Source: an uncultured Solirubrobacterales bacterium (GTDB taxonomy: Bacteria > Actinomycetota > Thermoleophilia > Solirubrobacterales > 70-9). From it: a DNA stretch of 64,000 nucleotides. A model generated the notes under the pieces. The model ran no database searches and was not told the DNA's origin. It saw only the letters and a list, made by a program, of their open reading frames with translations. The stretch is from assembly GCA_963748075.1 (NCBI GenBank), contig CAVVHQ010000044.1, forward strand, positions 14,631 through 78,630, written 5' to 3'. Of the stretch, positions 2 through 61,833 are shown one piece after another. The stretch's first letter is position 1, and each line of letters begins with the position of its first letter. The translations under genes and the position numbers were made by a program.

Positions 2-190
2 CTCGACGAGGCGCGGCGGCGAGCCGGCGAGATCGTCAATCGGATGCGGCGCGGCGAGATCCGCCGCGACCCGGGCCCCCGCCGCGGCCTGCGCGGCCAC
101 GGCGTCTGCCCGCCGTTCTGCGACTTCGCGCCGATCTGCCGCCGCGACCGGGCGCCGGCCGAGCCGCGCGAGGAAGAGGGCGAGGACTGA
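2..190 (+). CDS. C-terminal end of a RecB/AddB-type helicase-nuclease subunit (5' end cut by the window edge)
   Basis: The frame is open from the window edge to TGA at 188-190. It ends ...GHGVCPPFCDFAPICRRD, a cysteine triad like the Fe-S staple of AddB/Cas4-type PD-(D/E)XK nucleases. The stop overlaps the ATG of the next helicase gene (TGATG), suggesting translational coupling. Confidence 0.5.
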   Translation, partial: LDEARRRAGEIVNRMRRGEIRRDPGPRRGLRGHGVCPPFCDFAPICRRDRAPAEPREEEGED

Positions 191-3100
191 TGGCGGGCCG
201 CACGCCGACCCCCGAGCAGGCGGCGGCGATCGCCGCCGATCAGCGCCGGGTGCTGGTCGAGGCCGGGGCCGGGACCGGCAAGACCGGGACGATGGTCGAC
301 CGCTACTGCCGCCTGGTCTGCGAGGAGGGCGTCTCGCCGGACGCGGTGCTCGCCTTCACCTTCACCGACCGGGCGGCCGCCGAGCTGCGCGAGCGGATCC
401 GCGCCGCGCTGGAGCTGCGCGCCGAGGACGGCTCGGAGCGGGCGCGCGAGCTGCTGGCCGGGATCGGCGCCGCCTGGGTGACGACGATCCACGGCTTCTG
501 CAACCGCCTGCTCGCCGGCCACCCGGTGGCGGCCGGGGTCGACCCCGGCTTCCGGGTGCTGGACGCCCCGGAGGCGACGCGGCTCGCCGACGAGGCCTTC
601 GAGGGGGCGATGGAGGACCTCCTCGCGGCGGGAGACGAGTCGCGGGAGCGAACCGTGGCGGCCTTCGGGATCGGCGGCCTGCGGGCGATGGTCGGCGGCG
701 TCCACGCCGAGCTGCGCAGCCGTGGGACCGCCTCGCCGCGGCTGCCCGAGCCGCCCGAGCCGGACGTCGAGGCGGCGCTGCGCGACGCCGCGGCGGCGGC
801 CGCCGGGGCGCTGGCGGAGCTGAAGCCGGCCAACTCGAACCGCGAGCTGCTCGGACGGGCGATCGAGGTGTTGGAGGGAGACCGCGTCCCCGGCCTCGAC
901 CGCCTGGGGGAGCTGCGGACGAGGAGCACTGCCGGGGCGATGGCCGGATACCGGGAGGCGATCGAGGCGGCGACCGCGCGCGTCGCCGAGGCGGGCGAGG
1001 GTGGCGAGGCCTACCGTCACGTCGCCGAGCTTCTCGAGCTGTTCTCGGCCCGCTTCGCGGCGGCGAAGGTGCGGCGGGCCGGCCTCGACTTCGAGGACCT
1101 CCAGCTGCTCGCCGCCCGGCTGCTGGAGGGGACCGAGGTCGGCGCCGCCTACCAGGCGCGCTTCAGCCACCTGCTGGTCGACGAGTTCCAGGACACCAAC
1201 CGGCTGCAGCTGCGGCTGGTCGAGGCGCTGCGCGGGCCGGATTGCCGCCTGATGGTCGTCGGCGACGAGCTGCAGTCGATCTACGGCTTCCGCCACGCCG
1301 ACCTCGACGTCTTCCGCGAGCAGCGCGCCGCGATCGAGACCGACCCGGGCTCGGGCGCGCTGGCGCTGAGCGGCAACTTCCGCTCCCGCCCCGAGCTGAT
1401 CGGCGCGGTCAACGCGATCGGCGAGCGGCTGCTCGGCGAGACATACCGGCCGCTGCGGGTCGGCGCCCTGCCGGAAAGCAACGGCCCGGCGGGCGAGGGG
1501 CCCGCGGTCGAGCTGCTGCTCACCGGCCGCGAGGGCTGGGACGCGGAGGGGATCGAGCTGCAGCCGGCGGTCGACGCCCGCACCTCGCCCGCCGCCCTGG
1601 CCGAGGCGCGCTTCCTGGCGGCGCGGCTGCGCGAGCTGGCCGACGCGGGGGTGGAGCGCGGGGCGATGGTCGTGCTGCTGCGCGCCTTCCGCAATCTCGA
1701 CGCCTACGAGGACTCGCTGGAGCGGGCCGGGCTGCGGCCCTACGTGGTCGGCGGGCGCGGCTACTGGTCCCAGCAGCAGGTCGCCGACGTCGGCGCGCTG
1801 CTGGCGACGATCGCCAACCCGCTCGACGACCAGGCGCTGTTCGGGGCGCTCGCCTCCCCCGCCTGCGGGGTGACGCCGGATACGCTCTGGCTGCTCCGCG
1901 CCGCCGCCGGCCGGCGCCGCCACGTCTGGCCCGCGGTCGAGCGGCTCGCCGGGCGGGAGGAGGCGGAGCTGGAGGACCCGGGGCGGCTGGAGGCGATCCC
2001 CACCGCAGAGCAAGAGCTGCTGCGCCGCTTCGCGGCGACGATCGCCGCCCTGCGCCGGCGCGCCCCCCGGCTTCCCCTCGCCGAGCTGATCGACGCGACG
2101 GTGGCCGAGACCGGCTACGACCTGGCGGTGCTGATGCGCCCCTCCGGCGAGGCCCGCTTCGCCAACGTGCGCAAGCTGATGCGGCTGGCGGCCGAGTTCG
2201 AGTCGCGCGAGGGCCGCGACCTGCGCGGCCTGCTCGACTTCCTCGCCGCCCGCTCCGAGGCCGACGCCGAGGCCGAGGCCGCCACCGCGCTGGAGGGCCA
2301 CGACGGGGTGCGGATCATGACCGTGCACAGCGCCAAGGGACTCGAGTTCGACGTGGTCGCCGTCCCCGACCTGGCCCGCAGCCTGCTCGCAGGTTCGGCG
2401 AACGCCGCTGCTGACGGTCGGCCGCGAGGCGGAGGACGCCGCGGGTGGGGATGCGCCTGCGCCGCCTCGGCGCCGCCCCGGTCGACCTCTACTCCTACGG
2501 CGAGCTGCGCGAGGAGGGGCGGCGGCGGGACGCCGGGGAGGAGCTGCGACTGTTCCACGTCGCGGCGACGCGGGCGCGGCGGCGGCTGCTGCTGAGCGGC
2601 GTCGTCAAGCCCGAGCCGGAGCGCGAGGCGAGCCCGCGGACGTCGGTGGTCGAGCGGATCGCCGCGGCGCTCGGGGTCGATCGCGAGCGCGACTCCACCG
2701 TCTCGGTGCCGGCGCCGCAGCCGCGCGCCGGCCTGGAGGCGAGCTTCGAGCCCCCGGAGATCGCCGTCCGCGTCAACCTCGCCTCGCCCGAGCGGGCGGC
2801 CGAGCTGTGCGCGCGGCGGGCCGAGCAGGGCGTCGCGCCGCACCTCGGCGAAGGCCCGGCGCCGCTGGTCGAGCGGCAGCCGCCGGCCGTCCCCAACCGC
2901 CCCCTCTCCTATACCGCGATCGGCGCCTACGAGGACTGCGCCTACCGCTTCTACACGGAGCGCGTCCTGGACCTGGGCGACCGCGGTAGAGGTTTGAGTC
3001 GCATACCGGCTCAAACCTCTACCGCGCCGGCCGCCGGGGACAATGGCGTAACGGCCGACAACCGCGCCGATGCGGCGGCGCGGGGGGCGGCGGTCCACTC

Positions 3101-3719
3101 GCTGCTCGAGTGGAGCCAGGCGAACGGATGGGCGGAGCCGGACGGGGAACTGATCCGCCGCCATGCCCTCGCCGCCGGCCTCGAGCTCGGCGACGCAGGA
3201 GCGGTCGAGGGCCTGCTCAACCCGGTCCGCGCCTGGCTGGACTCGGCGCTGTTGCGCGACCGGGTCCGCGCCGCAGGTGTCTCGACGCGGGCCGAGGTCC
3301 CGTTACTGCTCGACGTCTCGGGCACCGTCCTGCGCGGCTCGATCGACCTGCTGGTCGAGCGCGACGGTGAGCCGCCGCTGGTAGTCGACTACAAGACCGA
3401 CCGCCTCGACGGCGCCTCCCCGCAGGAGCGCGCCGCCCGCTACGAGACGCAGCGCGACGTCTACGCGCTGGCCGTCGCCGGGGCGCGCGGCGCGGCCGCG
3501 GTCGAGGTCGCCTACGTCTTCCTCGAGCGACCCGAGGAGCCCGATCTCAGCCGACTCGGCCGGGCCGAGATGGAGGCGGGACGGCGACAGCTTGCAGCGA
3601 CGATCGCGCGGATCTCCGGCGGCGAGTTCCCACCTGCCCCGCCCGAGCAGCGCGGCTGGGCGCTCTGCGAGGGCTGCCCGGCCCTCGGCCGCCTCTGCTC
3701 GGGGCCCGAGGGCGTCTGA
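190..3719 (+). pseudogene. UvrD/AddA-like ATP-dependent helicase with a C-terminal Cas4/AddB-type nuclease domain; reading frame broken near 2395-2445
   Basis: ORF 190-2595 has Walker A (AGAGTGKTG), DEFQD and VHSAKGLEFDVV helicase motifs, then turns into Arg/Gly junk after about 2395. ORF 2445-3719, in another frame, continues with helicase motif VI (LFHVAATRARRRLLLSG). It then has a PD-(D/E)XK domain (DLLVE..VVDYKTD) and the cysteine triad CEGCPALGRLC. The third frame reads RTPLLTVGREAEDAAGG over 2399-2443. Confidence 0.7.
2982..3026. repeat. Perfect 45-bp palindrome (17-bp arms, 11-nt loop) lying in-frame inside the addA-like CDS
   Basis: CGCGGTAGAGGTTTGAG (2982-2998) is the exact reverse complement of CTCAAACCTCTACCGCG (3010-3026). 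The palindrome is exactly 15 codons starting on a codon boundary (RGRGLSRIPAQTSTA). It is full of codons rare for this GC content (aga, ttg, agt, ata, caa, tct). Confidence 0.9.
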
Positions 3720-3811
3720 CCGGCGCATCTCGGCGTCCTCGGTCGCTCACGTAAAGAGCACGCTTCGCTCCCTGCGTCCTTGACCTTCTCGGTTCTCGGT
3801 CAGACGCCCTC
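3708..3811. repeat. Family-C palindromic intergenic element, copy 1
   Basis: TIRs are GAGGGCGTCTGACCG (3708-3722) and CGGTCAGACGCCCTC (3797-3811). The interior blocks CCGGCGCATCTCGGCGTCCTCGGTCGC ... GCTCCCTGCGTCCTTGA are shared with the copies at 5402, 36631, 40497 and 61705. Both TIRs contain the stop codons of the convergent flanking genes. Confidence 0.8.
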
Positions 3812-4033
3812 AGGCGGAGCTTGCTCGAGCTTCGCCGCCAGCTCGTCGAGCCGCAGCTCCTGGAGGCCGGCGCTGACCGCGTCCAGCTCCGCCGCGCAGT
3901 AGGTGACCAGCTCGCGACCCTCGCTGCACAGCTCGAGCGTCTCGCGCAGGCCCGCCTGGCCCGAATCGAGCCGGTCGATGATCTCCTCCAGCCGCTCGAC
4001 CGCGGCCTCGTAGGACTCAGGCTGCTCGCTCAT
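3800..4033 (-). CDS. xseB: Exodeoxyribonuclease VII small subunit
   Basis: 77-aa ORF MSEQPESYEAAVERLEEIIDRLDSGQAGLRETLELCSEG..., typical of the XseB helical hairpin. It overlaps xseA upstream by 4 nt. Confidence 0.85.
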   Translation of the reverse strand: MSEQPESYEAAVERLEEIIDRLDSGQAGLRETLELCSEGRELVTYCAAELDAVSAGLQELRLDELAAKLEQAPPEGV

Positions 4034-5382: not shown

Positions 5383-5401
5383 AAGCTCAGGCTATCCGTG
5401 T

Positions 5402-5509
5402 CCGATGACCCGCAAGGCCCAAGCAGATCAAGGATGCAGGGAGCGCCGCGTGCTCTGCACGCAAGCGACCGAAGACGCAGATATGCGCCGGGCATCGCGG
5501 GTCATCCGG
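5402..5509. repeat. Family-C palindromic intergenic element, copy 2
   Basis: TIRs are CCGATGACCCGCAAGGCCC (5402-5420) and GGGCATCGCGGGTCATCCGG (5490-5509). The core GCAGGGAGCG-GCGTGCTCTGCACGC-AAGCGACCGAAGACGCAGATATGCGCCGG is almost identical to the copy at 36631. The hxlR stop (5502-5504) lies in the right TIR. Confidence 0.8.
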
Positions 5510-34046: not shown

Positions 34047-34066
34047 CGGAAGCGCAGCATAGCGGC

Positions 34067-34086
34067 AGACTGGCCAGGCAGCCAGG
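34067..34086. promoter_or_regulatory. Degenerate third copy of the operator-like motif (AGACTGGCCAGGCAGCCAGG)
   Basis: 17 of 20 positions are identical to 37978-37997. It lies 20 nt upstream of the ACAD start at 34046. Confidence 0.4.
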
Positions 34087-34794
34087 CGTGCCTGAGGGCT
34101 CGGCGCCGTCAGGCTTTGAGAGACCGCTGGCAATCTGGTCAGCTTCTGCGACGGCGCCGCCTATTCCGGCGACCGTGGTGATGCAGCGCGAATTCCGATC
34201 AGGCGGGCTGCGTTTCGATGCCCTCGTCGGCAGGCGCCCTTCTCGAACGCGAGCGAGGATCTGGGCATCGGCCTGGTGCGAATAGCAAGGCGCCGCGTGA
34301 GGAGGATGCTGAGCTGCTACAAGCCAGCCGTGCGTTGCGAGTGCGAAGCTCACGGCTACGTCATGCCTTCAGCGCTTAGAGAGCAGTTGCTCTCGCCGCT
34401 CACGACGGCGATCGTGATAACGAACATGTGGATTGTGCGTATCACCGCCATTTGAGGCCGGGAGATCGCGAAACTCGCACACTGCTCGGGACCTTTTCGC
34501 AGATCGCGATCTGCCCTTCTTGAAAAAACTCGGCCACGGTCAGCAGGCGGGATCTACCTGAGCGCCGCTGGTTGCCGAAGCACGTCGAGACCAATCCGAT
34601 GCGCTCAGGACTATGCGAGTGCAGTATCGCGATTTGCGCGCCCGATCAGATTCGCTCTATTAAGATTCCTAGTCGCTTGAGGCTGCTCGCAGCAGCACAT
34701 CGTATAGTCAAATCGAGTCTGCGAGTCAAAGCAGCTCCATCTCGATACAGCAGGGCTCATGGCGACAGGCGGGCACGTCCCGCGCGGTGGAGGT

Positions 34795-35568
34795 TCAGCC
34801 GGCGCGATCGAGGGCGCGCCAGGGGCCGGTCTTCAGCGCCGGGCCGAAGCCGGCGTCGAACAGGGCGCCGGCGCGGCAGCCGCGGACCCGCCGCCCGTGC
34901 GTGCGCAGCAGCGTTTCGCCGCGAATCGTGAACCCGTGCCGTGGATGGCGCTCGAAGGTGCGCCGGATGCCGGCGTGGTCGAGCTCCCAGCCGCGCAGGC
35001 CGAGCACGTCGACCAGGATGCCGTCGTGGGCGAGGTGCTGGACGGCGCCGCGCTCGGGCGGAACCGTGGGGTTGAGATGCAGGGTGATCGCGTCGAGGAC
35101 GTCGTGGCGCGTCGCCTCCGGAAGCGGCGAGCCGTCGAGCACCTGCGCGGCCGTCTCCGCCCCGGCGACCGTGAAGCAGCGATCGCTGAGCGCCTCCATC
35201 GTCGGGAAGGCGATGTCATGGAGCATGGTCGCCGCGAAGAGCGCCTCCTCGTCGCACTCGAGCCCCTCGACCTCGCCGAGGGCGCGGGCGAAGATGTAGG
35301 AGCGGTAGCTGTGCTCGAGGACGGTCGGCTCCAGCTCGGCGCAGGCCTCGACCACCTCGCGGGCGAAGGGCGTGTCGGGCGGGGTGAGCCGCGAGGGGTC
35401 GGGGCCAGAGCCCCTCAGACCTGCCCGGCCCGCCAGCAGCCGCGGCAGCGCCCGCGTCGTCGTCAACACGACAGCGGCGATGAACCGCGCTCGCTCGCCG
35501 CGGCCGAGGATCCCGTTGGTCCGCCGGCTCCACTCGATCGTCCCGATCTCACCGAGCAGAGCGCTCAT
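34795..35568 (-). CDS. HD-domain protein
   Basis: 258 aa from ATG 35568, which forms an ATGA overlap with glxA. The metal-binding context is ATMLHDIAF. Confidence 0.6.
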   Translation of the reverse strand: MSALLGEIGTIEWSRRTNGILGRGERARFIAAVVLTTTRALPRLLAGRAGLRGSGPDPSRLTPPDTPFAREVVEACAELEPTVLEHSYRSYIFARALGEVEGLECDEEALFAATMLHDIAFPTMEALSDRCFTVAGAETAAQVLDGSPLPEATRHDVLDAITLHLNPTVPPERGAVQHLAHDGILVDVLGLRGWELDHAGIRRTFERHPRHGFTIRGETLLRTHGRRVRGCRAGALFDAGFGPALKTGPWRALDRAG

Positions 35569-36560
35569 GCTGCCTCCGTCATCACGTCGACCGCGGCGGC
35601 GCCGAAGCGCTGCCGGTACTCGCCCGGGCCGATCCCGAGCACGCGCCGGAAGGCGCGGCGCATCGTCTCGGCGCTGCCGAAGCCGCAAAGCTCGGCCACG
35701 GCGTCGACCGAGGAGCGGCCGCTCTCGAGCAGGTCGCGCGCCGCCTCGACCCGGACCCGCTCGACGAAGCGGGCGGGCGTCGTGCGAGCCTCGCGACCGA
35801 AGAGCCGCGTCACCTGGCGCTCCGAGAGCGCTGCACGCTCGGCCAGCGCCGGAACGCGATGGTCGCCGGCCGGGTCGGCGACGATGCCGTCGACGAGAGC
35901 CCGGATCGGCGACTCGGCCGGGACCGGCGCGCCGAGCCGCTGCGAGAACTGCGACTGGCCGCCCGGGCGCTGGAGGAAGACGACGAGCCAGCGGGCGACG
36001 GTGCGCGCGACCTCGGGCCCGTGGTCCTCCTCGACGAGGGCGAGGGCGAGGTCGATCCCGGCGGTGACGCCGGCGGAGGTGATCACGGAGCCGTCGCGGA
36101 CGAAGATCCGGTCGGGCTCGACGCTCAGCGCCGGGAAGCGCCGGGCAAGGTCATCGCACCCGGCCCAGTGGGTGGTGACGCGTCGCCCGTCGAGCAGGCC
36201 GGCCGCGGCGAGCAGGAAGGCGCCGCCGCAGACCGAGCCGAAGCGGCGCGCGCCGGCGGCGACCCGCGGCAGCTCGGCGACGAGCTCGGAATCCTCGAGG
36301 GCCACCCGCCCGCGCCCGCCCGGGACCAGCAGCGTGTCGATGCCGTTCGGGTCGAGCTCGGCGAGGTCGGCGTCCGGCTCGATCCCCATCCCCGAGGAGG
36401 CGCGCACCCGGCCGCCCCCCGCGCTGGCGATCGTCAGCGCGTAGCCGGGTCCCCCGTCACCGGCGGCGACGACGCGCGACGCCGCGTCGAAGACGTCGGC
36501 CGGGCCGGCGATGTCGAGCAGCTGCAAGCCCTCGAAGGCACCCAAGACCATCTGTCGCAT
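35565..36560 (-). CDS. GlxA-family transcriptional regulator (DJ-1/PfpI domain plus AraC HTH)
   Basis: 331 aa. The DJ-1 nucleophile-elbow context is GSVCGGAFLLAAAG, and the C-terminal AraC-type double HTH is AVAELCGFGSAETMRRAFRR. Confidence 0.8.
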   Translation of the reverse strand: MRQMVLGAFEGLQLLDIAGPADVFDAASRVVAAGDGGPGYALTIASAGGGRVRASSGMGIEPDADLAELDPNGIDTLLVPGGRGRVALEDSELVAELPRVAAGARRFGSVCGGAFLLAAAGLLDGRRVTTHWAGCDDLARRFPALSVEPDRIFVRDGSVITSAGVTAGIDLALALVEEDHGPEVARTVARWLVVFLQRPGGQSQFSQRLGAPVPAESPIRALVDGIVADPAGDHRVPALAERAALSERQVTRLFGREARTTPARFVERVRVEAARDLLESGRSSVDAVAELCGFGSAETMRRAFRRVLGIGPGEYRQRFGAAAVDVMTEAA

Positions 36561-36585
36561 GCCGCGATTCTGGTCGGTCGCAGCA

Positions 36586-36624
36586 ATGTCTGCAAGGACA
36601 TATACCCCACAAATTCAGACATAT
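36586..36624. promoter_or_regulatory. Repeat cluster in the glxA promoter region
   Basis: The dyad ATGTC-N6-GACAT lies at 36586-36601. GACATAT is directly repeated at 36597 and 36618, 21 nt apart. The stretch is AT-rich and lies 26-64 nt upstream of the glxA start. Confidence 0.3.
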
Positions 36625-36630
36625 TCCGAT

Positions 36631-36727
36631 CTGAGGTCGCCTGGCCATGCAGATCAAGGAAGCAGGGAGCGTGGCGTGCTCCGCACGCGAGCGACCGATG
36701 ACGCAGATATGCGCCGGCCAGGCGGCC

Positions 36728-36731
<4 letters not shown>
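36631..36731. repeat. Family-C palindromic intergenic element, copy 3
   Basis: TIRs are CTGAGGTCGCCTGGCC (36631-36646) and GGCCAGGCGGCCTCAG (36716-36731), complementary at 15 of 16 positions. The core is nearly identical to copy 2. The thiolase stop codon (36728-36730) lies in the right TIR. Confidence 0.85.
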
Positions 36732-40448: not shown

Positions 40449-40496
40449 CGGCTTGGAGCCTGCCGCGAGGTCCCCCGCGCACACCTGGCGGCGGCG

Positions 40497-40575
40497 GACC
40501 GGCGCGGTGCGGCGTCCTCGGTCGGCCAAATAGCGCTGCTATTCGGCCTCCCTGCGTCCTTGCCCCGCTTGGTCC
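40497..40575. repeat. Family-C palindromic intergenic element, copy 4 (weak TIRs, different central hairpin)
   Basis: GACCGGCGC..GGCGTCCTCGGTCGG - GGCCAAATAGC-GCT-GCTATTCGGCC - CTCCCTGCGTCCTTG. The flanking blocks match copy 1 almost base for base, while the hairpin sequence is unrelated. Confidence 0.65.
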
Positions 40576-40717
40576 GGCGCGCGCCAGTCGCACACGCGGA
40601 ACCTCGCGGCAGGCTCTGTGGCCCGGTACTTCGGGGGAGGTCTTCTTCGACCATTCGGCGTTACGCAATATAGCTGTCCGGCCCGCGGCAACTGCGAGAC
40701 TGCCATATTGGGCGCCC

Positions 40718-49405: not shown

Positions 49406-49478
49406 AGCCCGCCCCCGGACTTGAACCGGGACAACCTTCCTTACAAGGGAAGCGCTCTGCCAATTGAGCTAGGCGGGC
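49406..49478 (-). tRNA. tRNA-Thr (anticodon TGT)
   Basis: The 73-nt cloverleaf was read by hand. Acceptor GCCCGCC/GGCGGGC, D arm GCTC-AATTGGCA-GAGC, anticodon arm CTTCC-CTTGTAA-GGAAG. Variable loop GTTGT, T arm CCCGG-TTCAAGT-CCGGG, discriminator T. CCA is not encoded. Confidence 0.9.
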
Positions 49479-61704: not shown

Positions 61705-61833
61705 CTGACTCGCGTCAGGGATCGCCAGGCAAAGCCGCAGGGAGGCCCGCAAAGGGGGGCGCACATAACAAGTGCGTGACCCCCGCAGCGGGCCGACCGA
61801 GGGCGCCGCATGGCGGCACCTGACACGCGTCAG
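61705..61833. repeat. Family-C palindromic intergenic element, copy 5 (long central hairpin)
   Basis: TIRs are CTGACTCGCGTCAGG (61705-61719) and CCTGACACGCGTCAG (61819-61833). The blocks GCAGGGAGG and CGACCGAGGGCGC flank a hairpin of about 48 nt (GCCCGC..GGGGGGCGCAC-ATAACAA-GTGCGTGACCCCC..GCGGGC). The MFS stop codon (61830-61832) lies in the right TIR. Confidence 0.7.

Follow-up and report, generated by a model that had tools for sequence, protein, structure and literature searches.

Why do several unrelated genes in one stretch of bacterial DNA end inside copies of the same palindrome? The stretch, here called the window, comprises 64,000 nt from an uncultured Solirubrobacterales bacterium (Actinomycetota, Thermoleophilia; GenBank assembly GCA_963748075.1, contig CAVVHQ010000044.1, positions 14,631 to 78,630). 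An initial annotation, made from the sequence alone, had described in it five copies of an element bounded by terminal inverted repeats (TIRs), the outermost TGA of which serves as the stop codon of a neighbouring gene. Our analyses showed that this element is an intergenic palindromic repeat, kin in kind to ERIC/IRU and REP/BIME, and that it belongs to a previously undescribed family; a literature search found no description of it. It is unusual in that its centre is conserved over its ends, a single core occurs in several subfamilies and three phyla, stop codons lie in both arms and the stem can grow into coding DNA. With moderate confidence, we regard it as an old, dispersed, non-autonomous palindromic repeat of mobile origin, which is co-transcribed as a gene-end hairpin and whose core is bound by a factor acting in trans.

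Copies of the repeat in the window

A covariance model (CM) was built from 115 family members, and the whole window was scanned with the filters off. Exactly five matches were obtained, here named c1 to c5 (Table 1), while the next-best match, of 15.8 bits, was noise. The CM thus recovered the five copies described earlier and nothing else above noise, and no orphan half-sites of the element were found in the window. Both conserved blocks match c1–c3 with 0–2 mismatches, the chance expectation being 0.00 and 1.15 matches; the dispersed repeat family, with a sequence of its own, is real. The window contains three short copies, one of the c4 type and one of the c5 type, the last with an apical-hairpin subtype that is also present in L038, L119 and L165 (L numbers denote fetched loci). 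The density of one copy per 13 kb in the window compares with about one extra copy per 60 kb in related genomes. The extent first assigned to c4 (40497-40575) was wrong, as this is a long-type copy with the limits given in Table 1.

According to the list of open reading frames (ORFs) and their translations, long ORFs with high GC3 terminate at the stop codons in the 5′ arms of c1, c2, c3 and c5 and at the one in the 3′ arm of c1. The stop of a flanking gene therefore does lie within the outer stem in four copies, and at c1 this applies to both genes; the PEGV with which the addA-like and xseB products were said to end at c1 was likewise found in the translations of the PD-(D/E)XK nuclease and XseB. 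The PD-(D/E)XK nuclease (which forms the C-terminal portion of a helicase-nuclease of the UvrD type), the thiolase and the MFS transporter were identified with Pfam, while XseB and the HxlR-like gene were named from gene context. Not every copy lies at a gene end, since c4 is flanked by two genes transcribed away from each other, one CNNM/CorC-like (−) and the other a Peripla_BP_2 gene (+), and contributes no stop codon.

Table 1. Coordinates of the five repeat copies in the window and of their parts.
Feature	Position	Strand	Description
c1, short type	3707..3811	+	CM match 3713-3798(+), 69 bits; between convergent helicase-nuclease ORF and xseB
c1 stem arms			GAGGGCGTCTGACCG and CGGTCAGACGCCCTC
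c1 5′ arm TGA	3717-3719	+	stop of PD-(D/E)XK nuclease ORF 2445-3719; protein end ...LCSGPEGV
c1 3′ arm TGA (TCA on + strand)	3800-3802	−	stop of xseB 3800-4033; protein end ...APPEGV
c2, short type	5402..5509	−	CM match 5412-5498(−), 83 bits; between HxlR-like gene and xseA
HxlR-like gene stop TGA	5502-5504	−	within c2 5′ arm
Ancestral HxlR stop TAG (5392-5394) and 11-nt remnant tcggacacgga	5392..5405	−	downstream of c2; from filled/empty orthologous-site alignments
c3, short type	36631..36731	−	CM match 36638-36724(−), 85 bits; 3′ of thiolase gene; best fit to family consensus
c3 5′ arm	36716-36731	−	
c3 block 1	36691-36717	−	
c3 apical hairpin	~36671-36690	−	
c3 block 2	36654-36670	−	
c3 3′ arm	36631-36646	−	
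c3 5′ arm TGA	36728-36730	−	thiolase stop, at native stop position
c4, long type, ~162 nt	~40456..40617	+	CM match 40492-40579(+), 70 bits; extent from arm alignment
c4 outer arms			GAGCCTGCCGCGAGG and CCTCGCGGCAGGCTC
c5, 49-nt apical hairpin variant	61705..61833	−	CM match 61714-61824(−), 35.5 bits, E 6e-7; between MFS transporter and disA
MFS transporter stop TGA	61830-61832	−	within c5 5′ arm

Anatomy, covariation and distribution of the family

The element is a rod-like hairpin of 100–170 nt, which consists, from the outside inwards, of an outer stem (P1), an internal loop, a second stem (P2), the core and an apical hairpin (P3). P1 is unique to the copy or subfamily. The internal loop is small and, in the commonest subfamily, has CGGCGC on the 5′ side and GCTTGG on the 3′ side, while P2 is a covarying stem of 7 bp, whose pair 16-86 is AU in 37 cases, GC in 32, CG in 29 and UA in 7. 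The core of about 45 nt is near-invariant throughout the Thermoleophilia and asymmetric: 5′ (N)GCGTCC-TCGGTCG lies opposite 3′ CTCCCTGCGTCCTTG, held together by a few G-C and G-T pairs that are interspersed with pyrimidine mismatches, and there is no complementarity between the two conserved blocks. P3 varies in sequence and length. The shared architecture claimed for the five copies was recognised in their sequences; the supposed TIRs vary in sequence from copy to copy. The stems are not conserved as TIRs recognised by a transposase would be; the conserved part is the centre.

Within the core, one supported pair joins the final C of GCGTCC to the G in CTGC-G-TCC (columns 29-76; C-G 105, A-T 8, T-A 1), and the GG of TCGGTCG pairs with the CC of CTCCCTGC. 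The latter pair is swapped on both sides in L139 (GG/CC swap), and a partial core swap, TCCCTCG with CTCAGTGC, is present in L158. As the copies derived with the search pattern are forced to have an invariant core, its conservation was argued from a pattern-independent set alone, namely 33 distinct copies retrieved via the neighbouring XseA protein. Pairing was found in 85.9% of the cells of this set, compared with 74.4% in shuffles and 26–48% in slid registers, and double changes were present at all eight P1 pairs. The G-U and A-C mismatches in three stems were balanced (88/88, 8/20 and 53/57). Covariation in the family is strong, and G-U pairs do not exceed A-C, as expected for pairing maintained at the DNA level.

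The extents of the stems were determined by anchored arm alignment, as minimum free energy folds run to the window edge and are unusable at 70% G + C. The short type has a length of about 103 nt, with arms reaching about 34 and 25 nt from the core, and the long type a length of about 166 nt, with arms reaching about 65 and 55 nt. One genome can contain several subfamilies that have the core in common. Members of a subfamily agree in the inner arm, also between species and at unrelated loci, while the outermost 12 nt or so are completely different between copies even within a subfamily, yet nearly perfectly self-complementary. In L126 (1131-1260), L159 (2345-2471) and the minus-strand copy of L045 (6401-6486), a small extra insert or replacement was observed around GCGAGCGC(A/G)NAGCGCGAGTTCC; as it lies inside the GCGTCC part or replaces it, it may represent an element nested in the copy or a core variant.

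The exact pattern TCGGTCG, a gap of 20–50 nt and CTCCCTGCNNCYTTG was used to scan 185,579 species-representative genomes. At least 120 loci match the core pattern, and more than 100 genomes share this core. Among the matches listed, almost all belong to metagenome-assembled genomes (MAGs) of Thermoleophilia (Solirubrobacterales, Gaiellales, Thermoleophilaceae and Miltoncostaeaceae), together with a few copies with A+T-rich stems from Desulfobacterales and Nitrospirota. The copy number in Thermoleophilia is estimated at tens to hundreds per genome. The comparison of the window and 18 loci with Rfam 15 (4227 families) at the gathering score detected only tRNA and RNase P, and relaxing the threshold to E up to 10 for c3 gave only a spurious miRNA match. 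Likewise, blastn of the family consensus against plasmids and phages gave no match. One contig classed as viral (L211, IMG/VR UViG_3300026300_000009) carries a genuine long-type copy at 560-720; two other pattern matches on viral contigs look like chance, the upstream GCGTCC being missing.

Some of the copies are grouped. Tandem copies 14 nt apart are present in L034 (3535-3720), and in L045 (6013-6486) and L004 (5214-5855) copies in the same orientation flank single small ORFs, which is superficially reminiscent of gene cassettes. The Desulfobacterales copies at unrelated loci have the arms TATAGACTTTCAGAAAA and TTTTCTGAAAGTCTATA in common.

Insertion, inheritance and loss at gene ends

The history of individual copies was studied on contigs of relatives found via XseB homologues and on 80 loci found via XseA. 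Occupancy was scored by CM matches over 88 loci; scoring with a relaxed regular expression on the XseA tree was discarded because of too many false positives. The c2 site is occupied in about 16 of the 88 loci and the c1 site, between xseB and the helicase gene, in about 12. Most copies are located at the same position and have arms specific to the site (TGACGCGCCTGGAC-like at one, TGAGGCCGCCTGACC-like at the other), and the core is nearly invariant although the XseA proteins are only 70–80% identical. The constant position, the site-specific arms and the invariant core show that the insertions are old, and that the copies have long been inherited vertically and repeatedly lost.

Moreover, the copies were shown to be discrete insertions at, or a few codons from, gene ends, and empty orthologous sites were found for c1, c2 and c4. 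The c2 copy corresponds to a 110-nt block (5395-5504) that is absent from L129, the closest relative (XseA 91% identical), where the site is exactly empty; the ancestral hxlR TAG persists 11 nt beyond the right arm of c2. The spacing between hxlR and xseA is 10–33 nt in many relatives with an empty c2 site. At the c4 site, the loci L213-L216 (three related species) are empty and read catcggcTAtgtgg. Neither arm sequence is present there, so that the unique outer arms came with the element, at least at c4. This rules out for c4 that the outer stem is an inverted target duplication or a hairpin that existed beforehand; for c3 such an origin could apply, as a hairpin at the empty site in L218 resembles the arm.

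The c1 site is empty in L123 and L125, and different stages of reduction were found elsewhere. In L129 only the right arm of c1 is left; the helicase there ends in PEGV and XseB in APP, and the former keeps its PEGV because one c1 arm has been retained. L128 has a solo arm and has lost the helicase stop, while L174 has kept the TGA...TCA arms and lost the core. Compared with the other copies at this site (about 12 loci, including L126 and L127), in which the core is forward relative to xseB, the core of c1 in the window is inverted between the same arms. The C-termini of element-free relatives were also compared, and the XseB tails of 120 homologues were collected. XseB ends there in ...APAEG and the helicase in ...LCSGPRAA or LCSGPL, and thus neither protein ends in PEGV where the element is missing. 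In L183 the stem extends into native xseB codons, XseB ending in ARLESEAP and the helicase in LCSGPRLESEVD. This extension is direct evidence that one arm was copied from the other, and it explains how convergent genes can come to have a common C-terminus. A short palindrome, GTCAGCTGAC, similar to the hairpin of L218 described below, was observed at the c1 site of L187.

The thiolase homologues all (120 of 120) end at the same residue, ...LI(E/Q)R(I/V), with TAG at this place in L218, and the TGA of c3 hence stands exactly at the native stop and leaves the protein unchanged. The empty thiolase 3′ end of L218 contains a short hairpin (2686-2712; GGCTGG-TCTA-GCAGCC, with CTAG in the loop), the first 12 nt or so of which resemble the left arm of c3; it could be a native target hairpin or an excision footprint. 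In relatives (L218, 2686-2720) the gene for an acyl-CoA dehydrogenase follows 35 nt after the thiolase gene, whereas the window has about 2.5 kb extra (34047-36630), which consists of c3 and a DJ-1/PfpI-AraC regulator gene (35565-36614). An arm-like solo sequence, CTCAGGCACGCCTGGCTGCCTGGCCAG, is located just upstream of the dehydrogenase gene (~34060-34100), and c3 may mark a rearrangement breakpoint.

The position of the element relative to genes was counted for 115 copies in high-G+C loci of other genomes, with ORFs filtered by codon-position GC, i.e., with heuristic calls. The 5′ side adjoins the end of a co-oriented gene in 62 copies and a gene start in 9, and the 3′ side adjoins the end of a convergent gene in 39 and the start of a downstream gene in 28. 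Tandem-forward contexts (17) prevail over tandem-reverse ones (5), with 19 convergent and a single divergent one. The preference for gene 3′ ends and for one orientation, which had been suggested from the window, is thus borne out by these counts. Measured from the core, the stops of co-oriented genes fall at sharply defined positions: −32 to −35 and −22 for short copies, −64 to −69 for long ones. Convergent genes stop at −23 and −55. A stop triplet within the 5′ arm was found in 54 of 77 short copies, compared with 10 of 77 control windows. TGA, TAA and TAG interchange at one position, and the opposite arm follows. As T(G/A)(A/G) triplets occur at fixed offsets in both arms, a gene that enters from either side terminates in the stem.

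In the other phyla, the rule is 'end of transcription unit' rather than 'stop codon'. This is illustrated by two copies, one of which, with A+T-rich stems, lies in a Nitrospirota MAG (L089, 1881-2411) about 20 nt past the 3′ end of the RNase P RNA gene rnpB and in the same orientation. The other, from a Desulfobacteraceae MAG (L120, 1421-1800), begins right after the rpsR stop, inside an rpsF-rpsR-(membrane protein)-rplI cluster.

The three insertion points that could be resolved are all at TA: gga|TAG at c2, C|TA|G (two overlapping stops) at c1 and cggc|TA|tgtgg at c4. Of 42 long copies, 20 have a TA no more than 7 nt away from each of their ends, against a background of about 6% per end, and TA makes up 1.05% of the dinucleotides in fetched loci with at least 60% G + C. 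The long-type and Desulfobacterales copies are mostly bounded by TA...TA. From the three sites it appears that the element inserts next to TA and that stop codons are one tolerated place where this rare dinucleotide is found; the flanking gene would then maintain a stop in the arm. Targeting of TA combined with tolerance would give the association with stop codons as a by-product, with no need for a mechanism that senses stops, and it would explain the data better than the stop-codon-targeted insertion proposed in the initial annotation.

Origin and role of the repeat

The remaining steps of how the element moves and acts may be outlined as follows. Intrastrand templated repair, i.e., template switching of the quasipalindrome type, would keep the stem complementary and at times lengthen it into the flanking coding DNA. 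The balance of G-U and A-C mismatches and the extension in L183 argue for such templated correction at the DNA level rather than for selection on one RNA strand. Judging by its position, the element is probably co-transcribed with the upstream gene and would form a 3′ or intercistronic hairpin, with possible effects on the protection or processing of the mRNA 3′ end or effects coupled to termination. Divergent regions are nearly avoided, the 17:5 bias is present and copies reside in tight operons, which argues for an importance of the transcribed strand and for the element being part of the upstream mRNA. The most economical guess, by analogy, would be stalling of ribosomes close to the stop, as with REP, or protection of the 3′ end. 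The conserved core is, in this proposal, the binding site of a putative trans factor; that it stays constant across orders and phyla while its surroundings change calls for a partner acting in trans.

Several results weigh against this picture of a mobile repeat with a role in the mRNA. Neither a transposase nor a parent element was found. [quoted passage not shown] As to a target-site duplication, (C)GGA is possible at c2 and leaves 7 unexplained nt, and none is clear at the TA of c4. No RNA-specific G-U excess was detected in the stems on either strand, which speaks against selection on one RNA strand, and co-transcription and an RNA role are deduced from position alone. Since c2 has been lost exactly from L129 and the distribution is patchy, individual copies can be dispensed with, which weakens the case for a host function at each locus. 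Also, part of the core conservation could come from gene conversion among copies, not from selection.

The strongest alternative, which we nevertheless consider improbable, is a purely selfish MITE without any host function, mobilised in trans by a transposase that either targets TA (IS630/Tc1-mariner-like) or recognises hairpins. The core would then be the transposase binding site, and the location at gene ends would reflect where a compact genome of high G + C tolerates insertions. The occurrence of both filled and empty orthologous sites, repeated loss with solo arms and decay, TA at the insertion points and at long-type ends, the TATAGAC...GTCTATA arms shared by Desulfobacterales copies at unrelated loci, several subfamilies in one genome and stem pairing kept at the DNA level all fit this explanation. 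However, no parent element or transposase was seen, and variable termini around a conserved centre are the reverse of known MITEs. Moreover, the core remained nearly invariant while the neighbouring proteins fell to 70–80% identity, a time over which immobile junk should have decayed, and tolerance alone does not predict the 17:5 tandem orientation bias.

Somewhat less probable still is that each copy is a functional unit, a structured nucleic-acid module (RNA or single-stranded DNA) whose conserved internal loop is active or bound by a partner. It might be a new ribozyme, a gene-end signal interacting with Rho or the ribosome, or an attC-like recombination site read as a folded strand. Such a module would account for the conserved core with covarying helices, the compensatory changes within the core, the same core in three phyla with unrelated stems, the orientation bias and the copies directly 3′ of genes, including the RNA gene rnpB in L089; the core strands are, in our interpretation, also rich in YC dimers and anti-Shine-Dalgarno-like CCUC/UCCU runs. 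It fits poorly with the lack of a G-U excess on either strand and of a match among the 4227 Rfam families even at E up to 10, with copies lost without replacement, and with one copy in a divergent promoter region and one inverted at the same site.

A related proposal, which we hold equally doubtful, is a new class of gene-end modules in which the core of about 45 nt, kept in Actinomycetota, Nitrospirota and Desulfobacterota, works as a folded site (RNA or single-stranded DNA) for a partner of its own, the stops in the arms being part of the design. This partner could be the enzyme that mobilises the element (a recombinase or a nuclease); Rho, the ribosome or an RNase at work on stop codons would be other candidates. 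If this were true, the element would be a portable 'stop plus 3′-end' cassette that fits any gene end in either direction with the protein unaltered, as seen at the thiolase.

The terminator role that had been considered in the initial annotation was not supported. Scans for terminators and for sigma-70 promoters detected neither at any element, and no T-run was present in the flanks examined; with no U-tract and no sigma-70 promoter, the element is not a canonical terminator. That the copies are ordinary intrinsic terminators or palindromes that look alike by chance can practically be dismissed, since, although they are hairpins downstream of genes, the 27-nt block has a chance expectation of 0.00, the CM E-values reach 1e-15 to 1e-20, there is no T-run and more than 100 genomes have the core in common. 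Two further candidates were rejected. The likeness of the c3 reverse strand (AAGGAAGCAG...GAUGACGC) to E. coli 4.5S RNA is due to c3-specific variants of a covarying pair, the topology is different and the signal recognition particle (SRP) model gave no match. Read-through or recoding of the SECIS-like kind was discarded as, by reading, the frame of the core relative to the stop differs between c1 and c3.

Among known repeats, ERIC/IRU elements are imperfect palindromes of about 127 bp in transcribed intergenic regions, including operons, which are conserved across genera, occupy orthologous sites patchily and have no known transposase. The present element resembles them in size, in being an imperfect palindrome over its full length, in its operon-internal copies, in its strong sequence conservation across genera, in its patchy orthologous sites and in having no known transposase. 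It differs in its phylum, in its conserved asymmetric internal core with varying outer stems, in the stops at fixed arm offsets and in having several subfamilies with one core.

Like REP, BIME and REPIN sequences, it is a palindrome that lies outside genes, at their 3′ ends or between the genes of an operon; it also largely avoids promoter regions and is long-lived. REPs of E. coli located within 15 nt of a stop codon stall terminating ribosomes and reduce the expression of the upstream gene (PMC12306157), which provides a precedent for an acting hairpin close to the stop. Unlike REPs, which are 20–40 nt long with a GTAG-type head, and REPINs, which are symmetric doublets, the element is a single asymmetric unit of 100–170 nt, and its stop codon is inside the stem, not merely near it. 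No RAYT gene was seen, although no systematic search for one was made.

Like Correia/NEMIS, RUP and TA-duplicating IS630-related MITEs, the element is non-autonomous, about 100–150 bp long with inverted ends and polymorphic for filled and empty sites; TA at the insertion points and altered gene ends are also common to both, as co-transcribed hairpins probably are. In contrast, MITEs have conserved TIRs and a variable interior, the reverse of the situation here, and the short type shows no clean TA duplication and the family no known parent insertion sequence. Integron attC sites (57–141 bp) are likewise imperfect palindromes in which structure is conserved over sequence and which stand right after an ORF in a fixed orientation, and they are recognised as a folded single strand, a respect in which the element may be likened to them. 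Their RYYYAAC/GTTRRRY boxes are, however, absent from the aligned element sequences, the copies lie 1.6–21 kb apart among housekeeping genes rather than in cassette arrays, and there is no integrase nearby in the window. MIRUs are also actinobacterial intergenic repeats within operons whose ends overlap flanking stop and start codons, but they are tandem direct repeats encoding small peptides, not hairpins, and have no sequence similarity to the element.

Thermoleophilia, Actinomycetota that abound in soil, have hardly been studied by molecular genetics, and more than 100 of their genomes contain this family, which had not been annotated before. For annotation, it accounts for odd C-termini, for identical tails on convergent genes and for gene ends that differ between close relatives. 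As regards evolution, it shows that one inserted repeat rewrites the last codons of two genes at once and that extension of a palindrome copies coding DNA onto the opposite strand, and it exemplifies a repeat with a centre far better conserved than the ends. Should the core have a partner, the family would point to a new gene-end process in high-G+C bacteria, which to our knowledge largely lack canonical terminators.

Two further observations concern the window itself. The UvrD-type helicase / PD-(D/E)XK nuclease (190-3719, +) is represented by two overlapping ORFs in different frames (190-2595 and 2445-3719), whereas it is one gene of 1155–1183 aa in relatives and in ENA ERZ25039549 contig_87814, whose XseA is identical to that of the window; the split points to a frameshift, a faulty assembly or a pseudogene. 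A tRNA gene at 49406-49478 (−), with a score of 62.9 bits, represents the sole Rfam family detected in the window at the gathering threshold.

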